Source of the DNA: an uncultured Bacilli bacterium
Lineage (GTDB): Bacteria; Bacillota_I; Bacilli_A; RF39; UBA660
Direction of reading: 5' to 3'
Assembly (NCBI GenBank): GCA_944331865.1
Contig: CALVIZ010000002.1
Span: 12,227-76,226, forward strand
Length of the DNA stretch: 64,000 nt
Shown here: positions 36,281 to 51,974 of the stretch, in pieces
How positions within the stretch are numbered: position 1 is the first letter of the stretch
Layout: every line of letters begins with the position of its first letter
Translations under genes and position numbers: made by a program
Notes under the pieces: model-generated
Databases searched by the model: none
What the model was told of the DNA's origin: nothing
Seen by the model: the letters and a program-made list of their open reading frames with translations, nothing else

Positions 36281-36351
36281 TTATAACATAAAAATACAAA
36301 AAACAACATATTTTTTTAAAAATTATATTAAAATGTGTAAAATTGTGTTAT
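36281..36351. repeat. 71-bp direct repeat R2, copy 1
   Basis: ttataacataaaaatacaaaaaacaacatatttttttaaaaattatattaaaatgtgtaaaattgtgttat is near-identical to 42918-42988. Confidence 0.8.
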
Positions 36352-36417
36352 AAATTAGAAATAATTCAGGAAAAATTTCATCAAGTTTTTACACTTAGTT
36401 TTAAAATGTATAAATTA

Positions 36418-37950
36418 TTAGTTTTTCTTACGCATTAATTTATGATCTGTATCAATTATTTCAGTTACATTATTAGTATTTCTTGATTTTATTGTTCCTA
36501 TATTTTTCATATTCAAATTATCTATTACCTCAGCATCTGTTAAAACACAAGTAAACAAATCATAACAACAAATTGTTTGAAGATTTATTCTAGCTCCTCT
36601 ACTACCTGTAAAATCTATGCTATATATGTTTACCCCATCAAATGGGCCGATAAATTCTACTTCTGAGAATTTACATTCTTTTAAATTTCCGTCATAAACT
36701 GTTTGAGGATTTATTTTGGCTCCTTTGCTTTCTGTAAAATCTGCATGATTTATTTTTGCTCCATCAAATGGGCCAATAAATTCTATTCCTGAGAATTTAC
36801 TCCATATTAAATCTTTTTCAAAAACTGTTTGAGGATTTATTTTAGCTCCTTTACTCCCTGTAAAATCTGAGTAACTTATATAAACTCCATCAAATGGGCC
36901 ATCAAATTCTATTCCTGAAAATTTGCAATTATATAAATATTTTTTATAAATTGTTTGAGGATTTATTTTAGCTCCTTTGCTTCCTGTAAAATCTGAATTA
37001 GATATTATTACTCCATCAAATGGACCTATAAATTCTACTCCTGAAAATGTACATCCATTTAAATTTTTTTCAAAAACTGTTTGAGGATTTAATTTTACTC
37101 CCTTAAATCCAGTAAAATTAAGTCCACGTATATCTACATTATCAAAAGATACATTACTAAAATCAATCTTTTTCAATAATTTCTCAGACATTTTAAATTT
37201 TCTACAAGGTATTCTATCTGCAAATAGAGTCTCTGTAGAAGATTTATCGAATTCTATAACATCCGTAACAAATAAAATATCTGGATTAGGTAAAGTTATA
37301 TATTCACCATCTTTTAATTTTTCTAAAACTTCTATTAGGTTTTGTATTTCTATATTCATTACCTCAGCATCTGTTAAAGTAGACAAACCATCATAATAAA
37401 CATTTTGTAGATCTACTATAGCTCCTTTACTTCCCATAAAATTTGTTTGGGATAAATGTACTCCATCAAATGGGCCGATAAATTCTACTCCTGATAATGT
37501 ACATCCTCTTAAATTTTTATCGTAAATTGTTTGAGGATTTATTTTAGCTCCTTTGCTTTCTGTAAAATTTGCACCTGCTATTTTCGCTCCATTAAACGGA
37601 CCTATAAATTCTACTCCTGATAATTCACATCCCCTTAAATCTTTATTTTGAACTGTTTGAGGATTTAATTTTACTCCCTTAAATCCAGTAAAATTAAATC
37701 CACTTATATCTACATTATCAAAAGATACATTACTAAAATCAATTTTTTTCAATAATTTCTGATTTATTACAGATGTTATTTCCCAATAATATTGCCCACA
37801 CTTTGCTATCTTTTCAAATAAAATGTGTGGATTAGATAAAGTTATATGCTTACCATCTTCTAGACTTTCTAAAATCTTTATTAATTGTTGTCTTTTAATC
37901 CGTAACCAATTTTCATATGTATTTTTTAAAATTTGATTAATATAAATCAT
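36418..37950 (-). CDS. 40-aa-repeat family protein, paralog A. A fused double module of 510 aa.
   Basis: Two complete N-domain+repeat modules are joined in one ORF. Repeats carry GVEFIGPFDG and (D/N)FTGSKGAKINPQT(V/I)Y. No signal peptide. Conserved C-terminal tail ...HKLMRKKN. Confidence 0.7.
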   Translation of the reverse strand: MIYINQILKNTYENWLRIKRQQLIKILESLEDGKHITLSNPHILFEKIAKCGQYYWEITSVINQKLLKKIDFSNVSFDNVDISGFNFTGFKGVKLNPQTVQNKDLRGCELSGVEFIGPFNGAKIAGANFTESKGAKINPQTIYDKNLRGCTLSGVEFIGPFDGVHLSQTNFMGSKGAIVDLQNVYYDGLSTLTDAEVMNIEIQNLIEVLEKLKDGEYITLPNPDILFVTDVIEFDKSSTETLFADRIPCRKFKMSEKLLKKIDFSNVSFDNVDIRGLNFTGFKGVKLNPQTVFEKNLNGCTFSGVEFIGPFDGVIISNSDFTGSKGAKINPQTIYKKYLYNCKFSGIEFDGPFDGVYISYSDFTGSKGAKINPQTVFEKDLIWSKFSGIEFIGPFDGAKINHADFTESKGAKINPQTVYDGNLKECKFSEVEFIGPFDGVNIYSIDFTGSRGARINLQTICCYDLFTCVLTDAEVIDNLNMKNIGTIKSRNTNNVTEIIDTDHKLMRKKN

Positions 37951-37979
37951 TATTATCCCTCCCTATATAAATTTCATTT

Positions 37980-38008
37980 ATATTATCAAAAAAAAGATAG
38001 GATGTCAA
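37980..38008 (-). promoter_or_regulatory. Sigma-A promoter of paralog A: TTGACA-N17-TAATAT
   Basis: The minus strand reads ttgacatcctatcttttttttgataatat, about 25 nt upstream of the RBS GGGAGGG. Confidence 0.55.
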
Positions 38009-38164
38009 TTTATAACATCTTAGCGTAATTTTTTCCTAAGTATAACATTTTAAAATTCCAAAGTTTAACATTTATAATGGTTTAAAAAAATAATTTGATA
38101 ATATTCTTTAAGAAAATATAATTGCATTTTAGAAATGGACATTATAAAGAGTACAAAAAAATTT

Positions 38165-38310
38165 TATTATTGACTTATCAAAAAAATACCTAACATTATT
38201 TGAAATCTTCCGTTTCACAACAAACAAAAAATGAGCTAGCTTAGTATTTCCTAAATTTGCTCATTTTTGCTGTCAAATTCAATTTATAACATAAAAATAT
38301 AAAAGTCAAT
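38165..38310. repeat. ~140-bp direct repeat R1, copy 1. Contains a hairpin aaaatgagc...gctcatttt.
   Basis: About 90% identical to 42800-42935. Confidence 0.7.
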
Positions 38311-38327
38311 ATAGAAGTATATAATTA

Positions 38328-39014
38328 CTAGAAGTGTTTTTTATTCCTAGTTAATTCCATTAAAACGAAACCAGGAGGAGGTGATTTTGGTTCGTAATCA
38401 TAATAGTCTATTATCTCAACATTTGTTAAAATAGACGAATTAGCATAAGATACTTTTTTCCGATCTACTATAGCCCCCTTACTGCCTGTAAAATCTGCAT
38501 ATAATAAGGTTGCACCATCAAATGGACCTATAAATTCTACTCCTGAGAATATACAGTAACTCAAATCTTTTTCAAAAACTCTTTGAGGATTTATTTTAGC
38601 TCCTTTGCTTCCTGTAAAATCTGTTTCGTATAAATATATTCCATCAAATGGGCCTATAAATTCTACTCCTGAAAATTTACATCTACTTAAATTTTGGGCA
38701 TAAACTGTTTGAGGATTTATTTTTACTCCCTTTAATTCAGTAAAATCCATCCCTCTTATATCTACATTATCAAAAGATATGTTACTAAAATCAATCTTTT
38801 TCAATAATCTCTCAGGTATTGCAAATTTCTTATAAGAACTACTTTCATTAAATAAAATATTTGCATCAGATAATGTCAAATATTTACCATCTTCTAGACT
38901 TTCTAAAATATTTATTAATTTTTGCCTTTCTGCTTTTATTCTATTATAAAACTCTAAACTATTTCTAATTCCATTTAAAGATTGACTATTGAAACTCATT
39001 ATTATTCCTCCCAT
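38328..39014 (-). CDS. 40-aa-repeat family protein, paralog B (228 aa, ~3 repeats)
   Basis: Conserved N-domain (LESLEDGKYLTLS), NPQT-containing repeats, and a divergent C-terminus. Confidence 0.65.
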   Translation of the reverse strand: MGGIIMSFNSQSLNGIRNSLEFYNRIKAERQKLINILESLEDGKYLTLSDANILFNESSSYKKFAIPERLLKKIDFSNISFDNVDIRGMDFTELKGVKINPQTVYAQNLSRCKFSGVEFIGPFDGIYLYETDFTGSKGAKINPQRVFEKDLSYCIFSGVEFIGPFDGATLLYADFTGSKGAIVDRKKVSYANSSILTNVEIIDYYDYEPKSPPPGFVLMELTRNKKHF

Positions 39015-39028
39015 TATAATTTAAATTT

Positions 39029-39057
39029 ATATTATCAAAAATAAGTTATGATGTCAA
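39029..39057 (-). promoter_or_regulatory. Sigma-A promoter of paralog B: TTGACA-N17-TAATAT
   Basis: The minus strand reads ttgacatcataacttatttttgataatat. Confidence 0.5.
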
Positions 39058-39092
39058 CTAAGTCATATTATCTTACACAATTGTCAAAATTA

Positions 39093-40151
39093 TTAATTTT
39101 TCTTCCGCATTAATTTAAAATTAGCATCAACTATCCCGGTTTCATTATTAGTATTTATTGATTTTATTGTTCCTATATTTTCTATATCCATTAGCTCAAC
39201 ATCTGTCAAAACACAAGTAGAAAAATCGTCATAATAAACTGTTTGAGAATCTATTCTAGCTCCTTTACTACCTGTAAAATTTGTTTTAGATATATTTGCC
39301 CCATCAAATTCACCGATAAATTCTACTCCTGAAAATGTACACCCACTTAAATCCTTATTTATAACTGTTTGGGGGTTTATTATAGCTCCTCTACTACCTG
39401 TAAAATTTGTTTTAGATATGTTTGCTCCATCAAACGAACCATCAAATTCTACTCCTGAAAATATACATCCACTTAAATCCCTCTTTATAACTTTTTGAGG
39501 ATTTATTCTAGCTCCCATACTGCCAGTAAAATTTGTTTTAAACAAGTATGCTCCATCAAATTCACCAATAATGCTAAAAACAGATCTCATTCCATAATCT
39601 TCAGGAATAAATATAACTCCAGATAATACGCAAAATCTAAAATCTCTATAATAAATTTTTTGGGGAGATATTAAGGCTCCTTTACTCCCTGTAAAATTTG
39701 CTCTAGATATTTTTGCTCCATCAAATGGTCCTATAAATTTTACACCAAAGAATGTACATCCTCTTAAATCTTTTTTATAAACTCTTTGAGGATCTATTCT
39801 AACTCCTTTACTACCAGCAAAATTTGTATCATACATATATGTATAATCAAATGAACCGTCAAATTCTACTCCTGAGAATGTACATCCTCTTAAATCTTGT
39901 TTATAAACTTTTTGAGGGTCTATTTTTACCCCCATATATCCAGTAAAATTAAGGCCACGTATACATACATTATCAAAAGATATATTACTGTAATCAATCT
40001 TTTTCAATAATCTTTTAGGTATTGCAATTTCCTTATAAACTTTACCATCTTCTACCTCAATTTCCTTAAATATAATATTTGGATTAGTCAAAGTTATATA
40101 TTCATCATCTTCTAAACTGTCTAAAACTTCTATTAGCATTTCTAAATTCAT
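39093..40151 (-). CDS. 40-aa-repeat family protein, paralog C (352 aa, subfamily 2 N-terminus MNLEMLIEVLDSLEDDEY)
   Basis: Repeats with (N/D)FTGS(K/M)G(A/V)RI(D/N)PQ(K/R)VY. Conserved C-terminal tail IDANFKLMRKKN. Confidence 0.65.
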   Translation of the reverse strand: MNLEMLIEVLDSLEDDEYITLTNPNIIFKEIEVEDGKVYKEIAIPKRLLKKIDYSNISFDNVCIRGLNFTGYMGVKIDPQKVYKQDLRGCTFSGVEFDGSFDYTYMYDTNFAGSKGVRIDPQRVYKKDLRGCTFFGVKFIGPFDGAKISRANFTGSKGALISPQKIYYRDFRFCVLSGVIFIPEDYGMRSVFSIIGEFDGAYLFKTNFTGSMGARINPQKVIKRDLSGCIFSGVEFDGSFDGANISKTNFTGSRGAIINPQTVINKDLSGCTFSGVEFIGEFDGANISKTNFTGSKGARIDSQTVYYDDFSTCVLTDVELMDIENIGTIKSINTNNETGIVDANFKLMRKKN

Positions 40152-40232
40152 AAGTATCTACTCCTCGTAAAATTACATTTATAATAATCACAAAACAAAA
40201 AATCAAATATTTTTTCATTAAAACTCAAGATT

Positions 40233-41132
40233 TTATTTCTTTCGCATTAATTTAAAATTAGCATCAATTAACCCAGTTTCATCATTACTATTTCTTGATT
40301 TTATTGTTCCTATATTTTCCATATTTATGTCATCAATTATCTTAGCATCTGTTAAAACACAAAGAGACAAATCATCAAAATAAACCGTTTGAAGATCTAT
40401 TTTAGCTCCTTTACTACCTGTAAAATCTGTTTCGTGTAAATATATTCCATCAAATGGGCCGATAAATTCTACTCCTGAGAATTTACATCTTCTTAAATTT
40501 CTCTTATAAACTGTTTGAGGTTCTATTCTAGCTCCTTTGCTTCCTGTAAAATCTGCTCCTTCTATTATCACTCTATCAAATGATTCAATAAATTCTACTC
40601 CTGAGAATTTACATTCACTTAAATTTCCCTTATAAACTGTTTGAGGATCTATTCTAGCTCCTTTGCTTCCTGTAAAATCTGCACCATTTATTTTCACTCC
40701 ATCAAATGGGCCGATAAATTCTACTCCTGAGAATTTACATTCACTTAAATTTTTATTGTAAATTGTTTGGGGATTTATTTTAGCTCCTTTGCTTCCTGTA
40801 AAATTTGTTTTAGATATATTTGCACCATCAAATGAGCCATCAAATAATACTCCCGATAATACACAAAAGTTAAAATCCTTGTCATAAACTGTTTGAGGAT
40901 CTATTTTTACTCCAATAAATCCAGTAAAATCAAAGCCACATATACATACATTATCAAAAGATACATTACTAAAATCAATCTTTCTCAATAATCTCTCAGG
41001 TATTGCAATTTCCTTATAAACTTTACCATCTTCTAAAACTTTTTCCTTAAATATAATATTTGGATTAGCCAAAGTTACATATTCATTATCTTTCAAACTA
41101 TCTAAAGCTTCTATTAGCTTTTCTAAATTCAT
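40233..41132 (-). CDS. 40-aa-repeat family protein, paralog D (299 aa, subfamily 2)
   Basis: Same architecture. C-terminal tail IDANFKLMRKK. Confidence 0.65.
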   Translation of the reverse strand: MNLEKLIEALDSLKDNEYVTLANPNIIFKEKVLEDGKVYKEIAIPERLLRKIDFSNVSFDNVCICGFDFTGFIGVKIDPQTVYDKDFNFCVLSGVLFDGSFDGANISKTNFTGSKGAKINPQTIYNKNLSECKFSGVEFIGPFDGVKINGADFTGSKGARIDPQTVYKGNLSECKFSGVEFIESFDRVIIEGADFTGSKGARIEPQTVYKRNLRRCKFSGVEFIGPFDGIYLHETDFTGSKGAKIDLQTVYFDDLSLCVLTDAKIIDDINMENIGTIKSRNSNDETGLIDANFKLMRKK

Positions 41133-41200
41133 ATTTTCAACTCCTCACAAAATTGCATTTATAATAATCACAAAAACAAAAATATCAAGTTTTTCATAAC

Positions 41201-42718
41201 TCAAAGCTGATTTTTATTCCGTATTAATTTATAATCAGCATCAATTAGACCAATTTCATCATTAGTAATTCTTGATTTTATTATTCCTATTTTTTCCATA
41301 TCTATGTCATCCGTTATCTCAACATCTGTTAAAACACAAAGATACAAACAATCATAATAAACCGTTCGAAGATTTATTTTAGCTCCTTTGCTTCCTGTAA
41401 AATCTAATTCGTTTAAATATATTCCATCAAATGAACCTATAAATTCTACTCCTGATAATTTACATTTTTCAAAACTATAAAGTGTTTGAGGATTTATTCT
41501 AGCTCCTTTGCTTCCTGTAAAATCTGCACCATTTATTTTCACTCCATCAAATGGGCCTATAAATTCTACTCCTGAGAATGTACATTCTTTTAAATCACTG
41601 TAAATTGTTTGAGGATTTATTTTAGCGCCTTTACTTCCTGTAAAATCTGCACCATTTATTTTCACTCTATCAAATGGGCCAATAAATTCTACGCCTGAAA
41701 ATTTGTTCCAACTTAAATCTTTTTCATAAACTGTTTGAGGATTTATTTTAGCTCCTTTGCTTCCTGTAAAATCTGCTCCTATGTAATCTGTATAACCAAA
41801 ATATACTAATTCTACTCCATCAAATGAGCCGATAAATTCTACTCCTGAGAATGTACATCCACTTAAATATTTATTGTAAATTGTTTGGGGATTTATTTTA
41901 GCTCCTTTACTTCCTGTAAAATTTGCACCAACTATTTTTGCGCCATCAAATGGGCCGATAAATTCTACTCCTGATAATATACACCATATAAATTTTTTTT
42001 CAAAAATTGTTTGAGGATTTATTTTAGCTCCTTTGCTTCCTGTAAAATCCGCTCCTTCGCTTCCTAAATCATCAAAATGTACTAAGTCCGCTCCATCAAA
42101 TGGGCCAATAAATTCTACTTCTGAAAATTTACATCCTCTTAAATTTTTTTTAAAAACGGTTTGAGGATTTATTTTAGCTCCTTTGCTTCCTGTAAAATTT
42201 GCTTTTTCTATCATTACTCCATCAAATGGACCTATAAATTCTACTCCTGAAAATTTGTTCCAACTTAAATCTTTTTCATAAACTGTTTGAGGATTTATTT
42301 TGGCTCCTTTGCTTCCTGTAAAATTTGTTCCTTCTATTATCACTCCATCAAATGGGCCGATAAATTCTACTCCTGATAATTTACACCCTCTTAAATTTTT
42401 TTTAAAAACGGTTTGAGGATTTATTTTTATTCCCTTATATCCAGTAAAATTAAATCCTCTTATGTCTACATTATCAAAAGATACATTACTAAAATCAATC
42501 TTTTTCAATAATATCTCAGGTATTGCAAATTCCCTATAAGAGTAGTTCTCATTTTCTTCAATTTCATTGAATAAAATATCTGCATTAGATAATGTTAAAT
42601 ACTTACCATCTTCTAGGCTTTCTAAAACATTTATTAGATTTTGCCTTTCAGCTTCTATTCTATTATAAAATTCTAAACTATTTCTATCTTCATTTAAAGA
42701 TTGACTATTGAAACTCAT
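41201..42718 (-). CDS. 40-aa-repeat family protein, paralog E (505 aa, ~8.5 repeats)
   Basis: N-domain as in paralog B. Eight near-identical repeats (KFSGVEFIGPFDG...ADFTGSKGAKINPQTVY). C-terminal tail IDADYKLIRNKN. Confidence 0.7.
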   Translation of the reverse strand: MSFNSQSLNEDRNSLEFYNRIEAERQNLINVLESLEDGKYLTLSNADILFNEIEENENYSYREFAIPEILLKKIDFSNVSFDNVDIRGFNFTGYKGIKINPQTVFKKNLRGCKLSGVEFIGPFDGVIIEGTNFTGSKGAKINPQTVYEKDLSWNKFSGVEFIGPFDGVMIEKANFTGSKGAKINPQTVFKKNLRGCKFSEVEFIGPFDGADLVHFDDLGSEGADFTGSKGAKINPQTIFEKKFIWCILSGVEFIGPFDGAKIVGANFTGSKGAKINPQTIYNKYLSGCTFSGVEFIGSFDGVELVYFGYTDYIGADFTGSKGAKINPQTVYEKDLSWNKFSGVEFIGPFDRVKINGADFTGSKGAKINPQTIYSDLKECTFSGVEFIGPFDGVKINGADFTGSKGARINPQTLYSFEKCKLSGVEFIGSFDGIYLNELDFTGSKGAKINLRTVYYDCLYLCVLTDVEITDDIDMEKIGIIKSRITNDEIGLIDADYKLIRNKNQL

Positions 42719-43014: not shown

Positions 43015-44589
43015 ATGAAAAAAGTATTAATAAGAATAAAGGATAATAGTTTTATTGTAAAAGAAAAAATTAAATTGTCTAGTGAATATAAAAATATTTT
43101 AAATACTAATGTAATTAGTTGTAATGAACTAGTTTTTTCTAATGAATATATTGTAAATAACCCCAAAATTGTTAGTAATTTTATTCAAGAATTATCTAAA
43201 ACTTACAATATTGATACTTTAATAATTGAAAAAAATGACTTTACTTTGTTATTCTTGAATATTGTAAAAAATAATAAAAACATAACTTCTTTAATTTTAA
43301 AAGATGATACACCTTTAACTTTTAAAATGTGTGAAGCTATTATGCACTCTTATGTTAAGAATGTCAATTGTTATACTTTACAACCATTTATGATAGAATA
43401 CCTTGATAAATATAATATTATTGTTGAATCTAGAAATGAAATACTATATTTATCTAAATTTATGATTGATAATAATTTAAGTATTTTTTCATCTATGTTT
43501 TATAAAATGACTCTAAATATGGATTTACCCTTGAATGAACAAGATGAACAAGATTTTGAAGCTTTTTGTAAAATTAATAAATATTTAAAAAATATTAATG
43601 TTAATATTGTTAATAAAAATGATTTAGAATTTATTATTAAAACTTTAAGACAAAATAATAAAAAGAATATTAAAATTAATATTCATGAAAATATAAGTAA
43701 TGTAGAATTAATTGAATATTTAAAGAATTTTAATAAGAGGAAAAGTAAAAAATATAAAATATATTTTCGCTTAGTATATAGTAATGATTATTTAAAAGAT
43801 AATATTTTTAAACAAACTAATTTAAGTTTACTTAAAACATGTGGTTATTTAATTTTGTTAATTGTATTTTTTTCTTTTGGTTATGTCTTTTATGATAATT
43901 ATAAATCTATGCAAAGTGATAATAACATAAAAGAAAATATAACAAAAGTTATTGAAATAAATGATTCTGAAGATATTATTGCGGAACTTAATAAAGATAA
44001 GCAGGAAGATGAAAAATTAGTTGTTAATGAAGATATTGCTAGTTTAATAAATGTAAATCCAGAAGTAGTGGCATGGATTAAAGTTAATAATACTAATATT
44101 GATTATCCAATAACCCAAACAGATAATAATGAATTTTATTTAAAACATAATTTCTATTTAGAAAAGGATAATAATGGTTGGGTTTTTATGGATTATCGAA
44201 ATCATACTGATGATTTAAGTGATAATATCATTCTTTATGCTCATAATAGATATTATAGTGGTATTATGTTTGGTACATTACAAAATACTTTAAGATATAG
44301 TTGGTATACTAATCCCGAAAATCAAATTATTAGTTTAAGAACTCTATATGAAAATTTAGAATATCAAGTATTTTCCGTTTATAAAATTACAGTTACTACC
44401 GATTATATGCAAACTTTATTTGCAGATGATAATGATCGATTAAACTTTTATAATATGTTAAAAAATAGAAGTATTTATAATTTTAATGTTGAACTTAAAG
44501 GTAGTGATAAAATAATAACTTTATCAACTTGTGCTGAAGATAATAGTAGATATGTATTACATGCTGTTTTAAAAAACGATGATAAATAG
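43015..44589 (+). CDS. Class B sortase-like transpeptidase domain fused to a ~280-aa N-terminal cytoplasmic extension and one TM helix
   Basis: The C-terminal ~190 aa carry SrtB-family hallmarks: the catalytic His context IILYAHNR, the Cys motif TLSTC, a downstream Arg, and the VAWIKVNNTNIDYPITQTDNNEFYLKHNF segment typical of SrtB. A TM helix LLKTCGYLILLIVFFSFGYVFY is preceded by a K/R-rich stretch, giving N-in topology. RBS taggtgaagtt, then ATG. Confidence 0.7.
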   Translation: MKKVLIRIKDNSFIVKEKIKLSSEYKNILNTNVISCNELVFSNEYIVNNPKIVSNFIQELSKTYNIDTLIIEKNDFTLLFLNIVKNNKNITSLILKDDTPLTFKMCEAIMHSYVKNVNCYTLQPFMIEYLDKYNIIVESRNEILYLSKFMIDNNLSIFSSMFYKMTLNMDLPLNEQDEQDFEAFCKINKYLKNINVNIVNKNDLEFIIKTLRQNNKKNIKINIHENISNVELIEYLKNFNKRKSKKYKIYFRLVYSNDYLKDNIFKQTNLSLLKTCGYLILLIVFFSFGYVFYDNYKSMQSDNNIKENITKVIEINDSEDIIAELNKDKQEDEKLVVNEDIASLINVNPEVVAWIKVNNTNIDYPITQTDNNEFYLKHNFYLEKDNNGWVFMDYRNHTDDLSDNIILYAHNRYYSGIMFGTLQNTLRYSWYTNPENQIISLRTLYENLEYQVFSVYKITVTTDYMQTLFADDNDRLNFYNMLKNRSIYNFNVELKGSDKIITLSTCAEDNSRYVLHAVLKNDDK

Positions 44590-44603
44590 TTCATCGTTTT
44601 TTT
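44573..44603 (+). terminator. Rho-independent terminator of the sortase-like gene
   Basis: aaaaacgatga-taaatag-ttcatcgtttttttttt: 8-9 bp stem plus a T-run. Overlaps the stop codon. Confidence 0.7.
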
Positions 44604-44606
44604 TTT

Positions 44607-45805
44607 AATTGTAATTTCAACCGCACCATTTAATATAATTTTAACAAACAATAAAAATTTGTCAATTTTTTTCTTTTTTGTTTGATAATTTTTATAAATA
44701 TATATTATGGTTTTTTTGTCAATGACACGCAGTGTTTATTTTATCATTGACAAAAAAATCATAATATTATTACAATTTTAATCAAACAAAAATAATAATT
44801 AATATTCCATTTCTTTTTCATATGAGTTTTTAAATCCAAACATTTTTCTTGGCATTGAATTAATATTAAATGCTATGTCATCTAGATATATTTGTGGGGT
44901 TATTTTAAATGACATTCCTTTTGGTAAATATCTTCTTACTATTGCATTTGTTCTTTCATTTGTTCCTCTTTGAAACGAACAATATGGATCACATTTATAT
45001 AGTTTTACTCCTAGTCTTTTTGCTGCTATTCCCATTGCTCTAAATTCTAATCCATTATCTATTGTTATTGATTTTACTTTTATTTCATTTTTTATTATAT
45101 ATTTATATATTAGGTTTGCTGTATAATAATCATATCTATATTCTGACTTTATTAACCATACTCTCCTTGTACATCTATCAACTATTGATACTATTGATTG
45201 TTGTTCATCCTTTTTTCCTAGTATTGAATCTATTTCCAAATGCCCTGGCTCTCTTCTTTCTTCTATATATTTTGGTCTTAATCCTATTGGTAATATTGTT
45301 TTATTTTCTAGATTCCATATGAAATGTTCCATCATTCCACTTCTCTTTTTCTTTTTGTGCTTTTTATAACATAAATCTGTTCTTTTTAAATATATTTTTC
45401 CTTGTTCTATCCAATTATATACTTGTTTTACACTTACACTTTTTTCTCCTAAATACATTTTCTTAAATCGATATACACATACTTCTATTGAATGATCTTT
45501 TCTATCATAATGATCAAATAAATATTTTATAAATATTTCATATTTCTTATTTATATCTATTTTCCTTTTTTTATATATTCCCGCTTTATATCTTGATATT
45601 GTTGAATGACTTATACCTAATCTTCTTCCTACTTCTCTCATTGATAAATTTTGTTTTAACAAAATATCAATTTCTACTTTATTTTTTTCTGTTAATTGTT
45701 TATAATGCATATAAGAGCTCCTCCTTGCCGGGTTGTGGGCTCTTTTATTATACCAAAAAAAGCCGCACCTTGTGGTGCGGTTCAAATTTCAATTTAGGAA
45801 AAACG
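44607..45805 (-). mobile_element. IS30-family insertion sequence (~1.2 kb) with terminal inverted repeats and a ~32-bp flanking duplication
   Basis: IRL aattgtaatttcaaccgcacca at 44607-44628. IRR (reverse complement) aattgaaatttgaaccgcacca at 45784-45805, a 20/22 match. Flanking direct repeat aaaaacgatgataaatagttcatcgttttttt at ~44573-44604 and ~45810-45841. Confidence 0.75.
44799..45710 (-). CDS. IS30-family transposase (DDE)
   Basis: N-terminal HTH (LSMREVGRRLGISHSTISRY). DDE residues with the IS30 signature ...QRGTNERTNAIVRRYLPKG. The start was trimmed to the ATG at 45708-45710 (MHYKQL), which is preceded by AGGAGGAG. Confidence 0.85.
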   Translation of the reverse strand: MHYKQLTEKNKVEIDILLKQNLSMREVGRRLGISHSTISRYKAGIYKKRKIDINKKYEIFIKYLFDHYDRKDHSIEVCVYRFKKMYLGEKSVSVKQVYNWIEQGKIYLKRTDLCYKKHKKKKRSGMMEHFIWNLENKTILPIGLRPKYIEERREPGHLEIDSILGKKDEQQSIVSIVDRCTRRVWLIKSEYRYDYYTANLIYKYIIKNEIKVKSITIDNGLEFRAMGIAAKRLGVKLYKCDPYCSFQRGTNERTNAIVRRYLPKGMSFKITPQIYLDDIAFNINSMPRKMFGFKNSYEKEMEY

Positions 45806-45828
45806 ATGATAAATAGTTCATCGTTTTT

Positions 45829-46788
45829 TTATAAAAAAGGATTTATTCTTTGTAATTCTTCATTACTATTATACATATTCATTTCTTCAAATATTCCTTT
45901 AGTTAAATCAGCATTTTCATTATAAAAATCAATAAGTAATTGAGCCCCTAATTCTTTATCACATAGTATCTCTTCTATTAAGTTATCTATATCTTCACCT
46001 TGATCTATTAAATCTATTAATATTTCTGTGCTTTCTTTTTCTTTATCTTCACTTTCTTCATTAAAATCATTTTCAGAATAATAATCAGATTTATATAATA
46101 CATTTTTATAAATATTAAATAACATATATTGTATTAAAAAACGAATGTCTAAATTAAATTCTATTACCAGTTCTAAAAATTTTTCCCAAATAAATACATC
46201 CTCATTTTTGCCATATATATACCTACTTTGAGCTTGAGCCAGTTCATTTAGTTCTATTATTTTACTAATTATCCGTTCTTCATCCGATAAATCTTTAGCA
46301 TTATCTTCCATTGTAAATATTGAAAAAGGATTTATTTTTAATAATTTACTTATTTCTTTATTAGCAATTAAATATTCCCTTGCTTTGTAACTTACTAAAT
46401 AATTACCCTCATTAACCATTTCAACATAATATAAAATAATCATTTTATCAATTGGTTTTTTTATTTTTTCTTTTAAAGATAAAGATTCTATGTTTTCTTT
46501 AACTGAATCGCTATATGGCATTGGTATATTTATTGCTTTAAAATAATTAATAAACAAATAAGCCATTTCATATACATATAATTTTAATATAACGATAATG
46601 TTTTCTTTTGTTAAGTTGTATTTATCTATGTATTGGGCAAAATCATTTTCAAAATTAGTAGACTTGCCTTGTAAATAATTTGTTATTTCATCTACTATAG
46701 TTTCACTATTATATAAAACATTAGTATTAGCATTAAATTTTTGAATAATTTCTATAATAATATTTTCTTTTAGCTCAATTTCCCCCAT
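45829..46788 (-). CDS. Hypothetical cytoplasmic protein (319 aa, acidic)
   Basis: ORF between the two IS30 copies. No motif. Confidence 0.45.
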   Translation of the reverse strand: MGEIELKENIIIEIIQKFNANTNVLYNSETIVDEITNYLQGKSTNFENDFAQYIDKYNLTKENIIVILKLYVYEMAYLFINYFKAINIPMPYSDSVKENIESLSLKEKIKKPIDKMIILYYVEMVNEGNYLVSYKAREYLIANKEISKLLKINPFSIFTMEDNAKDLSDEERIISKIIELNELAQAQSRYIYGKNEDVFIWEKFLELVIEFNLDIRFLIQYMLFNIYKNVLYKSDYYSENDFNEESEDKEKESTEILIDLIDQGEDIDNLIEEILCDKELGAQLLIDFYNENADLTKGIFEEMNMYNSNEELQRINPFL

Positions 46789-46795
46789 AAAAACC

Positions 46796-47590
46796 TCAAT
46801 TTACTACAGTTGAACTATAATAATAAAAACTGTCAGTTTCTTTATCATATTTAAAACTATGTTCATATGTTACTAGATTATTTATATAATCGTTTATATT
46901 AAAATTAGAACTATAAACTATTGCAGTATTTAAATCTTTTCTATCTTCATCATTATAACATTGCTTCGTTTCTAAATCACACTTTAAATAATAATCATAT
47001 ATTTTTATTACGTTATTATTTTCCGTTAATGCATATCTGATTATTTCTTTATATTCAATATAATTGTTACTTATATTTTCATTTGTGTCATATATATAGT
47101 AATATTCATTGTTATATTTTGCTTTAATGTTTTTATTATAATCAAAATCTGTTGATATAAATTTTATATCTGGACCTAATATAGTTTTGGCAGCTTCTTT
47201 AAATTTACTTAAACTGACTTTATATAATGGAGTATAATTATTAGTATTATTTAATACTTCAGATAATTCTTCTTTAGTTAGTACTTCTAAACTAAAATTA
47301 TCATATTTTAGTATGTATTGATAAATCATTGCTTGGATATATCTTGTATTTTGATTAGCTAAATTTGTATTAATTACATAATGAATTGAATGCACTCCAT
47401 CATATTCTAAAGCATTATCATTTAATAAATATGAATAAAGTTCTTTTACTGTACTTTCACCTATTTCATCAATGTTTGTATTTGTTTCTTTATTATTTTT
47501 TTCAAAATTAAATAATTTATAAAAACCAAAGCATGATCCAAGTACTAATAAAACAACACCGATTATTATTGCTATTTTTTTTGCATTCAT
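46796..47590 (-). CDS. Hypothetical membrane-anchored or secreted protein (264 aa)
   Basis: N-terminal signal-anchor MNAKKIAIIIGVVLLVLGSCFGFY. Confidence 0.45.
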   Translation of the reverse strand: MNAKKIAIIIGVVLLVLGSCFGFYKLFNFEKNNKETNTNIDEIGESTVKELYSYLLNDNALEYDGVHSIHYVINTNLANQNTRYIQAMIYQYILKYDNFSLEVLTKEELSEVLNNTNNYTPLYKVSLSKFKEAAKTILGPDIKFISTDFDYNKNIKAKYNNEYYYIYDTNENISNNYIEYKEIIRYALTENNNVIKIYDYYLKCDLETKQCYNDEDRKDLNTAIVYSSNFNINDYINNLVTYEHSFKYDKETDSFYYYSSTVVN

Positions 47591-47663
47591 TATTCATTCA
47601 CCTTAATAAAATTTTAGCATTTTTTTTTATTCTTGACAATAAAAAATCAAGATTTCTCTTGAT

Positions 47664-48980
47664 TTAATCAACTATATTTATACATGTATAATTCTTTTGA
47701 TCATAGTAATTTTTTAGTCCACTATATGTTCTATCAAATACTCCACCTGCTTCTGTATCTAATGTACTGGCACTTAAATCAGTGGCAATTTTTAATGTAT
47801 AATTTTCATCATCATATTCTGCTAGACCACTTATATTATTAAATGTTATTGTTTCTGGCTTACCATTAGTTATTTGAATATAATCATCATTATTACTAAA
47901 TTTATATGTATATATTCTTTGTGATATTTCTAAATATCCTAAACCATTTTCTGTTGCCCCTAAAACTAAATTATCTGTAGTTGTCATTGATCCAGAATAT
48001 CCTTCAATTTCACTATCTAATGATGTGCATGATCTAATTGCTGTGATGTCACTTGGAGATACATATAATATTGCGTTTACTTCTTTGCTATTATTTTCAT
48101 CATCTGAAAGTGTTATACCTACATTATATGGACCACCCGCTGTTGATAAATAACTATTTACAGTCTCTTTATTACTAAATGCATATTTACAATTTGATGG
48201 ATCTGTACATGATACTATAAAGTCATCAACTGAAATTGTAGTTGTATTTATTACTTTATATACCGTTTTTAATTGCGCTGTTGGTGCTGTTTTGTCTACT
48301 ACGTGTATTGTTCCTGTATAAGTATCTTCACCACAAGTTATAGTAAAATTATAATCTCCTAAAGCATTAGTATTTACATTATTAATATTTTTTTCACAAG
48401 TTGCTGCTCCCCCACCAGTAATTGTTGCATAATCACTTATATCATCAGATAATGTTTCCCCTAATCCTAAGGTTACATCTTTTATTTGAACATTTACTTT
48501 ATTATTCGCCATATTTAAATAATAATATACCCCAAATGCTACAGCTCCGATTAGTATTACTATTATTATTGTAAATAATACTTTATTCATTGGCCTTTTT
48601 GGTTTTTCTTGTTTTGGTGGTACTGCCCCTATATCTTCAACTTTTGTTGGTTCAACAAAACCATTATTATTTATATTGCCTAATGATATTCCTCCTGGGT
48701 CTTGACCTATAGAACTTCCCATATTATTTGGCATATTATTGTTTTCAGTTCCAGGAATTGGTGTTGCTACTGGATTGTTTTGTGGATTATTTGGCATGCT
48801 TATAGTATCTGAAACAGTATTTGTTACTGGTGTGCTGTTTAAATTAGTATTAACTGAATTAGTTACTGGTTCACCAACTGGTTGAGTTTGAATTGTTGGC
48901 TCTGGATTTTGACTTACTGGTTGTTCATTTAAATTATTACTTTGATTTTGTCCTAAATTATTAAAATTTTGCTCATTCAT
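47664..48980 (-). CDS. Hypothetical bitopic protein (438 aa). Q/N/P-rich N-terminus, one TM, extracellular C-terminal domain.
   Basis: Low-complexity N-terminus (NLGQNQSNNLNEQPVSQNPEP...). TM helix VLFTIIIVILIGAVAFGVYYYL. Confidence 0.45.
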   Translation of the reverse strand: MNEQNFNNLGQNQSNNLNEQPVSQNPEPTIQTQPVGEPVTNSVNTNLNSTPVTNTVSDTISMPNNPQNNPVATPIPGTENNNMPNNMGSSIGQDPGGISLGNINNNGFVEPTKVEDIGAVPPKQEKPKRPMNKVLFTIIIVILIGAVAFGVYYYLNMANNKVNVQIKDVTLGLGETLSDDISDYATITGGGAATCEKNINNVNTNALGDYNFTITCGEDTYTGTIHVVDKTAPTAQLKTVYKVINTTTISVDDFIVSCTDPSNCKYAFSNKETVNSYLSTAGGPYNVGITLSDDENNSKEVNAILYVSPSDITAIRSCTSLDSEIEGYSGSMTTTDNLVLGATENGLGYLEISQRIYTYKFSNNDDYIQITNGKPETITFNNISGLAEYDDENYTLKIATDLSASTLDTEAGGVFDRTYSGLKNYYDQKNYTCINIVD

Positions 48981-49178
48981 TTTATCAGCCCCTTATTTAT
49001 CATAATATAATTATACTGTTTTATTTTTAATTTTTTAATTATTTATATTAATTTTTTAATTGAAAAATTAAATTAGACACAAAAATTAATAGTGTTTCAT
49101 TTACTTTTGCAATCATCACATACCAATATGTATTATAATATGTATTGATATATTGCCCCAATAAAGGAGGTTTAATTT

Positions 49179-50372
49179 ATGGCAACTGTATCAAATTATA
49201 ATAAACATACAAAACTATCAGAAAGAATTAAAATTGAAAATGGTCTTAATAATGGGTTATCTTTCAGAAGTATAAGTAAAGATATTAATAAAAGTGTTAC
49301 TACAATATCTCGTGAAGTCTTTAATCGTAGATATAAAGAAAAAGGTAATTACTTTAATGGCTTTCCTGGTAAATGTTCTAAATTAGATAAGGCTCCATTT
49401 GTTTGTAATTCTTGTCCTAATTCAAAAAAATGTAGAATGACAAAGTTTTATTATAGTGCTGCTCACGCTGAAGAAGATTATAAGAAATTATTAGTTGAGT
49501 CTAGAACTGGAATTGATCAAACTACTGAAGAATTTAAAAATCTTAATAAAATTGTAAAAACAGATATTGATAAAGGGCATTCTTTTTCTCTAATTATAAA
49601 TAATCATCCAGAACTAAATATAACTGAAAGAACACTTTATAATTATCAAGAAAAAGGTTACTTATCTACTAAAAATATAGATTTACCAAGAAAAGTTAGA
49701 TATAAAAAAAGAAAAAGAAATTGTATAACTTCTAGTAAAAAAGAAAACCATTGTAGAATTAATCGTACTTATAATGATTTTCTTATATATATAAAAGAAA
49801 ACAATATCACTTATTATACACAAATGGATACTGTTGAAGGCATAATTGGAACTGGGCAGCCATGTTTATTAACTTTGTATTTAAAACATGCCCAACTCCT
49901 ACTTATATTTAAAATTTCAGAACAAACCATTACCTGTGTTAACAACAAAATTAAAGAAATAAAATCACTTATAGGTAATGAAATGTTTCATGAAATTTTC
50001 CCTATTATTTTAACAGACAATGGCTCTGAATTCAAGCGACCAGAAGAAATAGAGGATAATGGTATCCATGTAATTAATTCTAAAGTTTTTTATTGTGACC
50101 CTCAAAGAAGTAATCAAAAATCTCAAATTGAATTATCACATGAATATATAAGAAAATATATACCAAAAGGTATTTCATTAAATAACTATACAGATAATAA
50201 TATATTAGATATGATGAATAACATTAACTCAACTCCAAGAAAATCACTTGATTTTAAATCACCTTATGACATAGCTAAAAATATGTTTGGTGAAGAGGTA
50301 TTAAACAAATTGGGAATCGTTAAAATTGATAGCAAAAACGTAATATTAAATGATAGTCTATTTAATAAATAA
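49179..50372 (+). CDS. IS30-family transposase, second distinct copy
   Basis: N-terminal HTH (LSFRSISKDINKSVTTISREV). C-terminal IS30 signature ...QRSNQKSQIELSHEYIRKYIPKG. RBS AAAGGAGG. IS ends not determined. Confidence 0.8.
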   Translation: MATVSNYNKHTKLSERIKIENGLNNGLSFRSISKDINKSVTTISREVFNRRYKEKGNYFNGFPGKCSKLDKAPFVCNSCPNSKKCRMTKFYYSAAHAEEDYKKLLVESRTGIDQTTEEFKNLNKIVKTDIDKGHSFSLIINNHPELNITERTLYNYQEKGYLSTKNIDLPRKVRYKKRKRNCITSSKKENHCRINRTYNDFLIYIKENNITYYTQMDTVEGIIGTGQPCLLTLYLKHAQLLLIFKISEQTITCVNNKIKEIKSLIGNEMFHEIFPIILTDNGSEFKRPEEIEDNGIHVINSKVFYCDPQRSNQKSQIELSHEYIRKYIPKGISLNNYTDNNILDMMNNINSTPRKSLDFKSPYDIAKNMFGEEVLNKLGIVKIDSKNVILNDSLFNK

Positions 50373-50384
50373 TTATTTAAAATA

Positions 50385-50435
50385 TAATTTCATATATATC
50401 TGTAATGAAGCGTAGCGAATTAAGATATATATGAA
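50385..50435. repeat. Perfect 15-bp inverted repeat hairpin downstream of the second IS30 transposase
   Basis: atttcatatatatct - 21 nt - agatatatatgaaat. Confidence 0.6.
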
Positions 50436-50666
50436 ATTGGGGGTAATGTATCACTTAGTCTTGCAAAAATAATAATATTATTTGTTTCACTTAGTCTTTC
50501 AACAAAATAAGCAAAGGCTAGCATTGCTATGTCCTGAAATACTAAATGATACATTTTCTTAAAGTTTTTAATTAAAAAAGTACAATATTTTGTTGCACTT
50601 AATCTTGCATATTTACTTACTTTATTCTATTTCTTAAAAGTGTTGCAGTTAATTTTTCATTTTACC

Positions 50667-51974
50667 TTAGATTAATTTTTTAAATTCTTCTCCCCTATCT
50701 TCAAATTTTTGATATTGGTCTTGTGATGAACTGCCTGGTGATAATAATACTATTTCTCCTGGTTTTACATTTTCTTTTATTTTATCCATAGCTTTATTTA
50801 ATGTATAACATTTAAAACATTCAATCTTTATTTTATTTGCATAATTATCTATGGTATCAGTAACTTCTCCAATAGCATATATTGCTTTGACATTTTTAAT
50901 ATAATCATTTAATTCATTAAAATCTTGATTGCGATTTAAACCACCTAAAATTAGATGAATTGGTTTATTAAATGTTTTTAAAGCTGTAATTGTAGCTGTT
51001 GGATTTGTACTTTTAGAATCATTATAATATTCAACATTATTTTTGGTAGTTACATATTCAATTCGATGCTCTACACCATTAAAATTCTTTAAAAAATTTC
51101 TAACTTTTTCTTTATCTATTCTAAATTGTTTTAATACTAGTAAAGATGTTAAAATATTTTCATAATTGTGTTCACCTTTAATTTTAACTTCTCTTAAATC
51201 TAATAATTTTTCTTTATTTAAGTATAGTAAGTTATCTTTTATATAATTAATTTCATCGTTGAAATATATCTTCGTTGATTTAATATCTTTAGTTAAATCT
51301 AAACTATCAGGATTTTTCTTATTAATTATGGCAATATCTTTTTTAGTATGATGATTAAATATATTCTTTTTAGCTAATTTATAATTTTCATAACTACCAT
51401 GATAATCTAAGTGAGTAGGACATAAATTTGTAAGAACACTAATATTAGTTTTAAAATCAATAAAATCATATAATTGATGATCACTTATTTCTAAAAGCAA
51501 TATCGAATCATTATCAATTTCAGTTAATATATCACATAATGGATAACCAATATTACCCCCTAAAGTTACTTTGTAACCATGTAATTTTAATAATTCATGT
51601 ATAATCGTTACAGTAGTTGTTTTACCATTTGAACCTGTAACACCAATTATTTTAATGCCTTTTGGTAAATAATGATAAGCAAGTTCCATTTCATTTATAC
51701 ATTTTATATTTAGTTTCTTAATTTTTTGCATTATTTCACTAGTTGCCATTATAGCAGGATTTTTTATTATTAAATCATATTCATTTGATATTAAATCTAG
51801 TTGCTCTTCAGTAATAATTATTTTAACATTTAATTTATTTAATAATTCTTCATCTTTTTCCTTAAGTGGTTTTAAATCACTTAAGGTTACATCATTGTTT
51901 TTAGCTAATATCTTAGCTGCTGCTATTCCACTTCTTGCTGCTCCTAATATTAAAATTTTTTTATTTTCATACAT
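50667..51974 (-). CDS. murD: Mur ligase family protein, likely UDP-N-acetylmuramoylalanine--D-glutamate ligase
   Basis: N-terminal Rossmann ILILGAARSGIAAAKIL, ATP-binding P-loop GVTGSNGKTTT, about 435 aa. Assignment to MurD versus another Mur ligase is tentative. Confidence 0.6.
   Translation of the reverse strand: MYENKKILILGAARSGIAAAKILAKNNDVTLSDLKPLKEKDEELLNKLNVKIIITEEQLDLISNEYDLIIKNPAIMATSEIMQKIKKLNIKCINEMELAYHYLPKGIKIIGVTGSNGKTTTVTIIHELLKLHGYKVTLGGNIGYPLCDILTEIDNDSILLLEISDHQLYDFIDFKTNISVLTNLCPTHLDYHGSYENYKLAKKNIFNHHTKKDIAIINKKNPDSLDLTKDIKSTKIYFNDEINYIKDNLLYLNKEKLLDLREVKIKGEHNYENILTSLLVLKQFRIDKEKVRNFLKNFNGVEHRIEYVTTKNNVEYYNDSKSTNPTATITALKTFNKPIHLILGGLNRNQDFNELNDYIKNVKAIYAIGEVTDTIDNYANKIKIECFKCYTLNKAMDKIKENVKPGEIVLLSPGSSSQDQYQKFEDRGEEFKKLI

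Follow-up and report, generated by a model that had tools for sequence, protein, structure and literature searches.

An IS30-family insertion sequence flanked by two copies of a terminator hairpin in an uncultured gut Bacilli bacterium

The stretch of DNA analysed here, a 64-kb window of contig CALVIZ010000002.1 from an uncultured Bacilli bacterium, carries an insertion sequence (IS) between two convergent genes. On the left lies a class B sortase gene (43015-44589, plus strand; 524 aa), identified by Pfam Sortase and by NCBIfam TIGR03064 sortase_srtB, which its product matches at 161 bits against a cutoff of 153.75. On the right, a 319-aa open reading frame (ORF) from the ORF list is read on the minus strand (45829-46788); its function is unassigned, and a Pfam scan of its product gave no match. 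The IS occupies 44604-45798 (1,195 bp, minus strand) and is bracketed by an exact 32-bp direct repeat, with one copy at 44572-44603 and the other at 45799-45830. We conclude that it is very probably an intact, recently active IS30-family element of the IS1630-like kind, which inserted in a terminator hairpin shared by the two genes and duplicated that hairpin whole.

The window holds exactly two copies of the repeated 32-mer, AAAAACGATGATAAATAGTTCATCGTTTTTTT, and none is expected in 100 shuffles. Between its two copies, the element begins and ends with imperfect terminal inverted repeats, as a reading made earlier from the letters of the window (the sequence-only reading) had noticed. In transposase orientation, the transposase-distal repeat is TGGTGCGGTTGAAATTACAATTAAA (44604-44628, minus strand) and the transposase-proximal repeat is CCTAAATTGAAATTTGAACCGCACCA (45773-45798, minus strand). 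Their cores, AATTGTAATTTCAACCGCACCA (44607-44628) and AATTGAAATTTGAACCGCACCA (45773-45794, minus strand), match at 20 of 22 nt, with 0.01 chance matches expected, and the match can be extended to 25-26 nt. Comparison with other copies set the true ends at 44604 and 45798, and at least 14 related copies have the same ends. The interval proposed earlier, 44573-45841, was slightly generous on the right.

The duplicated sequence has the layout of a terminator, consisting of an A-run, a 6-bp stem, an 8-nt loop and a T-run, and it gives a terminator-like match and a DNA fold of -10.1 kcal/mol (z = -4.5). It opens with 2 nt of a Lys codon, continues through the sortase residues N-D-D-K and the stop, and takes in the hairpin, much as the sequence-only reading had described it (the sortase end plus a terminator hairpin). 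The final sortase codons make up the 5' arm, and the TAG stop falls in the loop. At the other edge, the T-run and the stop of the convergent 319-aa ORF have 2 nt in common. Since the 5' arm is the sortase end and the T-run overlaps the convergent stop, the target is one bidirectional terminator common to both genes. After the insertion, both neighbours retain a stop codon and a complete hairpin: the left copy is the sortase terminator, and the right copy now serves the 319-aa ORF.

Inside the element there is a sole long ORF, on the minus strand, which covers 44799-45785 if read from a TTG. The start codon is likely the ATG at 45710, nine bases past an AGGAGG (45720-45725), giving a transposase of 303 aa (44799-45710). 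This protein matches the NCBIfam equivalog NF033563 transpos_IS30 at 199.8 bits (cutoff 80), with profile positions 24-267 of 267 covered. An HTH_38 domain (43.7 bits) lies at its N-terminus, and D161 (HLEIDS), D218 (IDNGLEF) and E252 (GTNERTN) form a DD(33)E catalytic triad, in which 33 residues separate the second D from the E; the match to Pfam rve is weak, at 23 bits and under that model's cutoff. The transposase is intact. The single-ORF layout, a size within ~1.0-1.25 kb and imperfect inverted repeats of 20-30 bp are likewise those of the IS30 family, to which the element had already been assigned. Target duplications in this family are typically 2-3 bp long, a length that does not define the family. 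The duplications found here are longer, at 32 bp for the window element and 20-56 bp in its relatives.

To examine the locus without the element, we used an exact-sequence look-up of the neighbouring 319-aa protein, which led to a contig (L044) in Logan, assembled from run ERR4096565 of a different sample. This contig matches the window at 48609-45799 and at 44603-44024, both at 100% identity, with an overlap of exactly 32 bp between them. It is thus identical to the window over 3,359 bp with the join exactly at the repeat; the IS is missing, a single copy of the 32-mer remains, and the sortase 3' end starts 13 nt past the 319-aa ORF, with the junction reading ...catgctgttttaAAAAACGATGATAAATAGTTCATCGTTTTTTTataaaaaagg.... 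Identical flanks around a single copy demonstrate a true target-site duplication and a polymorphic insertion. The same comparison leaves no homopolymer ambiguity in the limits of the element (44604-45798) or in the length of the duplication (32 bp). Occupied and empty alleles co-occur in the population at 99.2-100% flank identity, which supports a recent insertion; the sequence-only reading had argued for one from the intact repeat and transposase, and had asked for this comparison with an IS-free allele. The insertion is common but polymorphic.

Some observations weigh against this history. A lone Logan contig (k=31) shows the empty allele, a search of JGI metagenome contigs for the exact empty-site pattern gave no match, and an identical sortase is encoded by five contigs, all five of which carry the IS or break within it. 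They would suit a history in which the insertion is fixed in the lineage and L044 is an assembly mis-join over the 32-bp repeat, so that the duplication would be real but not demonstrably recent. We consider such a history very unlikely. A mis-join would have to leave 3,359 bp at full identity and meet precisely at the repeat. Contigs from a de Bruijn graph stop at a repeat where the IS path exists, and the Logan contigs from other runs (L005, L043 and L045) indeed break inside the repeat instead of jumping it, which makes a mis-join in L044 improbable. The hairpin-long duplications found across the family, described below, independently predict precisely such an empty site.

It could also be asked whether the 32-bp repeats belong to the element, as terminators of its own, or to a local segmental duplication that later received the IS. 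Beyond the bare presence of the repeat nothing speaks for this, and we give it hardly any credence. A segmental duplication had been expected to show identity running past the 32 bp on both sides; instead, identity ends exactly there, with A (left copy) and G (right copy) as the preceding bases and T and A, respectively, as the following ones. The hairpin sequence flanking the same IS differs at each insertion, and the single copy in the empty allele already refutes the idea.

Relatives of the element were found by scanning species-representative genomes, and they fell into two groups. The gut group shares 68-94% amino acid identity with the window transposase and comes from metagenome-assembled genomes (MAGs) of uncultured gut Bacilli, from Acholeplasma sp. 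CAG:878 and from Ca. Fimihabitans; the second group consists of elements of Malacoplasma muris, at 36% identity. The inverted-repeat cores AACCGCACCA and TGGTGCGGTT are common to all gut-clade copies. The exact 303-aa sequence of the window is not on record, and two relatives, P0001 and P0003, were used as entry points instead; they led to three metagenome loci, which together with 11 MAG or genome loci make up a gut-clade set of 14 insertions.

The exact duplications in this set measure 20, 22, 25, 27, 28, about 25 (scripts gave 28), 29, 29, 30, 32, 32, 32, 39 and 56 bp. Their sequence differs each time and always abuts the same IS termini, and nearly all of the targets open with an A-run and close with a T-run around a stem-loop. 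In 11 of the 14, at least 85% of the possible end-to-end pairs are formed, compared with random windows of this AT-rich genome, 0.6% of which reach 80%. The genome of M. muris RIII-4 (NZ_CP177248.1; L022-L035), which uses genetic code 4, holds at least 13 copies of a ~1.18-kb IS1630-like element that are mutually 97-99% identical. Each copy sits in a terminator-like hairpin of its own, and among the 13 that were analysed, 11 are flanked by exact duplications of 23-35 bp; in the copies L025 and L032 the duplications have since diverged through point mutations.

When 25 sites from the two clades were measured by a fixed-width dyad scan, the hairpin dyad lay no more than 1 nt from the duplication centre in 23 of them, and larger hairpins have longer duplications, over a range of 20 to 56 bp. 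Among the reconstructed empty sites, a long ORF ends at most 56 nt away and points into the hairpin in 22 of 24, and does so from both sides in 12 of 24. The targets are terminators at gene ends. The two habits by which an IS1630-like element is recognised are therefore both seen: a variable inverted repeat is targeted and duplicated whole at the 25 independent sites, and the duplications run to tens of base pairs and vary between copies in the gut clade as in M. muris.

Some IS ends in short-read contigs do not fit this picture and count against it, lacking an adjoining hairpin (L047 on the left, L049 on both sides). Other loci show no duplication and have different hairpins on the left and on the right (L008, L012, L018, L020 and several others). 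Recombination between IS copies was considered for the latter, and for the short-read loci at least it was set aside in favour of chimeric assembly over the repeat. The left flank of one contig recurs as the right flank of another, for example in L056/L057, L061/L062 and L050/L060, and such swapped flanks indicate chimeric assembly across a multi-copy repeat, at least for short-read contigs. As a separate observation, short-read contigs that cross the IS are often chimeric (L046-L065, as well as L008, L012, L018 and L020), and many contigs are exactly IS-sized, such as L064 (1,195 bp) and L065 (1,194 bp). One locus, L012, is binned as Muribaculaceae, probably through mis-binning of a repeat contig.

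The habit of duplicating hairpins is not new. It was reportedly described in 1999 for IS1630 of Mycoplasma (Mycoplasmopsis) fermentans by Calcutt, Lavrrar and Wise (J Bacteriol 181:7597), and for this reason our findings do not overturn current knowledge. The window element resembles IS1630 in its IS30-type transposase, a length of ~1.2-1.4 kb, terminal inverted repeats of ~27 bp and whole inverted-repeat duplication, and it would be a new, divergent member of this already known kind. It differs in that its transposase is ~33-36% identical to those of the mycoplasma IS1630-like group, its clade lives in uncultured gut Bacilli with the standard genetic code and cell-wall genes, the duplications of that clade reach 56 bp, and it carries additional 3' sequence that includes a long hairpin and two promoter-like sites. 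An M. penetrans protein named 'transposase for IS1630-like insertion sequence element' is 62% identical to the M. muris transposase, and the window clade comes next in the same list of matches, at ~35% identity; the window transposase itself can be aligned with this M. penetrans protein (33% identity, E = 2e-52). Like the gut elements, the M. muris element makes hairpin-long duplications, and it has a related inverted-repeat core, ATTGAAAT.TGAA..GCA.C, whereas it stands apart in genetic code and in amino acid identity to the window transposase. Its duplications are more exactly dyad-centred than those of the gut clade and often lack the outer A/T pairs.

Published descriptions of mycoplasma elements agree with this placement and with the earlier statement that a few IS30-family members of low-GC bacteria make long duplications at palindromes. 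IS1630 is said to target inverted repeats of variable sequence and length and to duplicate them whole (PMC3317919). In M. fermentans strain M64 its inverted repeats measure 27 bp, and its duplications 16, 23, 25 and 26 bp (PMC3317919). ISMhom-1 of Mycoplasma (Metamycoplasma) hominis, for which the accession dq973625 is given, measures 1.26 kb, encodes a transposase of the IS30 family, and has inverted repeats of 27 bp as well as an untranslated region at either end (PMC7648426). Its sites are intergenic or at extreme gene 3' ends, where duplication of a site-specific inverted repeat keeps the ORFs intact (PMC7648426). The sortase of the window is preserved in the same manner, although ISMhom-1 belongs to a different host clade and is likened here by description. 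The prototype, IS30 of E. coli, prefers nearly palindromic hot spots and joins at their central 2 bp with a 2-bp stagger (PMC9333248). It shares with the window element a DDE transposase with an N-terminal helix-turn-helix, a single ORF, terminal inverted repeats and near-palindromic targets; in contrast to its 2-bp duplication at the hot-spot centre, elements of the window kind join at the outer edges of the palindrome and duplicate 20-56 bp.

How joins at such distant edges might arise can be outlined as follows. We assume that the transposase uses ordinary IS30 copy-out-paste-in chemistry, as taken from the family. The two strand transfers fell at the outer edges of the hairpin, one in the A-run and one in the T-run; the 32-nt gaps that they left were then repaired, which duplicated the whole hairpin, and each neighbour kept its stop codon and a full terminator. 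Whatever the palindrome length between 20 and 56 bp, the joins lie symmetrically at its edges. Given the fixed short stagger of a DDE synaptic complex, joins at distant edges imply that the edges must be brought together. The target would be captured by its two-fold symmetry or its structure, most likely as a palindrome extruded into a cruciform, whose base would bring the edges side by side and turn a short stagger into a hairpin-long duplication. A 2-bp stagger at the base of the cruciform would give the palindrome length plus about 2 bp, with which the data are compatible. The outcome would be a 'safe-harbour' insertion, in which genes are undisrupted and a terminator lies outside each IS end.

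The targets might instead be read as sequence on B-form DNA, with two transposase protomers on A-tract and T-tract half-sites and a flexible linker spanning 20-56 bp, and no cruciform. We think this unlikely, while granting it some weight. The A-run start and T-run end of nearly all gut-Bacilli targets are what it expects, and E. coli IS30 reads its nearly palindromic hot spots as sequence (PMC9333248). Several M. muris duplications, however, start and end in the stem without an A/T run (for example TCCAAAAC...GTTTTGGA and ATCTATAAC...GTTATAGAT), and a spacing of 20-56 bp with the dyad held within 1 nt is hard to fit to a fixed synaptic complex on straight DNA. The mode of hairpin recognition, by cruciform or by flexible half-sites, is in either case inferred from the target sequences.

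Other points tell against parts of our interpretation. The cruciform step is itself an inference: the sequences fit any small stagger, and structure and flexible half-sites are inseparable in them. The stagger prediction is unfalsifiable from such data, because branch migration varies the length of the extruded palindrome. The circle junction of this element would be ...ACAATTAAA joined to CCTAAATTG..., and a search for a circle or dimer junction of right and left inverted repeats (IRR-N0-30-IRL) gave none in 75 fetched loci and in JGI metagenome contigs, assembled contigs being a poor place for such intermediates. The IS1630-like label comes through the 'IS1630-like' protein of M. penetrans and through described behaviour, and the sequence link to IS1630 is in this way indirect.

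With these points in mind, we put forward a broader proposal, tentatively and as something we would rate below an even chance. Hairpin-edge joining may be an ancient conserved trait of an IS30 sub-lineage that spans wall-less mycoplasmas and gut Bacilli at ~35% identity. The length of each duplication would then be a read-out of the size of the cruciform extruded at an intrinsic terminator and captured by the DDE transposase.

Several parts of the element look regulatory; its promoter-like sites are consensus matches only. Near the transposase-distal end, an outward promoter-like site, TTGACA-16-TAAAAT with a TG extension (44638-44665, minus strand), agrees with the consensus at 11 of 12 positions and would read from the IS into the left hairpin copy. 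It lies ~35 nt from the IS end in about 10 of the 11 listed elements that have a 3' module (the window element, L006, L007, L008, L011, L013, L014, L015 and L036; no match in L009 and L012). Further inward, in the 3'-untranslated region, is a hairpin with 24-nt arms (44702-44767) that are 96% complementary (-18.1 kcal/mol, z = -5.8). One arm bears an antisense promoter-like site, TTGACA-18-TACAAT (44747-44776, plus strand), that points into the transposase gene and is kept in all 10 hairpin-bearing copies, including the divergent L012, in which the stem is preserved through changes on both arms. An Rfam scan of the element found no family, yielding just sub-threshold chance matches. These 3' modules are optional: the shorter relatives (L016-L020, ~1.02 kb) have neither the hairpin nor the outward site, and L015 has the outward site only. 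The hairpin module may exert antisense control on the transposase, and the outward site may drive transcription out of the IS, which the duplicated terminator would stop.

At the other end of the element, an extended -10 box, TGGTATAAT (45747-45755, minus strand), was read from the sequence and is likely the transposase promoter. Upstream of it is a terminator-like hairpin, CCGCACC-ACAA-GGTGCGG followed by T7 (45763-45780, minus strand; -9.5 kcal/mol, z = -3.5), which lies partly within the transposase-proximal inverted repeat and is kept in most relatives. This hairpin would block read-through from outside into the transposase gene.

A second IS30-family element lies nearby, at 49055-50666 (1,612 bp). 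Its 397-aa transposase (49179-50372, plus strand) matches NF033563 at 99 bits and is distantly related to the first, with which it shares only the catalytic C-terminus. The element ends in GTTAATTGAAAAATT...CATTTTACC and is missing from contigs L042 and L043. Its duplication is a 12-bp, non-hairpin sequence, TTAGATTAATTT here (49043-49054 and 50667-50678) and AAAGTTAAATAT and CTTCAACAATTT elsewhere, again longer than is usual for the family; a duplication of ~33 bp, suggested by BLAST overlap, was ruled out by the copy comparison. Both elements vary between alleles, which makes two distinct polymorphic IS30-family insertions within 5 kb. We also observed four substitutions within 20 nt, at 49036, 49039, 49046 and 49055, relative to three contigs with the same second-element insertion (L069, L073 and L075). 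Each of the four yields a T (C>T, C>T, G>T and G>T), and they hit the first base of the second element and one base of its duplication; outside them, the window and these contigs are identical over about 1.8 kb. Genuine local mutation could account for the cluster, as could a consensus error in AT-rich sequence.

Three ORFs lie between the two elements (319, 264 and 438 aa; 45829-48980) and have no Pfam domains. They had been taken for a cargo block, and cargo of an IS or a composite transposon was considered. That idea was rejected, because the genes are kept unchanged in alleles without the first IS (L044) and without the second (L042 and L043); they are therefore chromosomal genes of unassigned function. 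Elsewhere in the window, at about 36300-42700, paralogous genes for pentapeptide-repeat proteins form an array (40233-41132 and 41201-42718 are examples); their internal and inter-gene DNA repeats, at 77-85% identity, were seen as many secondary BLAST matches.

The element family is abundant in human-gut metagenomes, in which 1,216 homologues were found at E<=1e-10; the viral contigs searched held no relative of the transposase. The family visibly fragments and chimerises short-read assemblies of uncultured Bacilli. The window element provides a clean, population-verified case of an IS that spares its host by landing in a terminator and giving each neighbour its own copy. Dyad-centred and hairpin-sized duplications, as seen across the two clades, are what would be expected of a DDE transposase that reads the symmetry or structure of DNA rather than its sequence. 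If our broader proposal is correct, these elements would be natural structure-specific, terminator-seeking integrators that carry an intact terminator copy outside each end.

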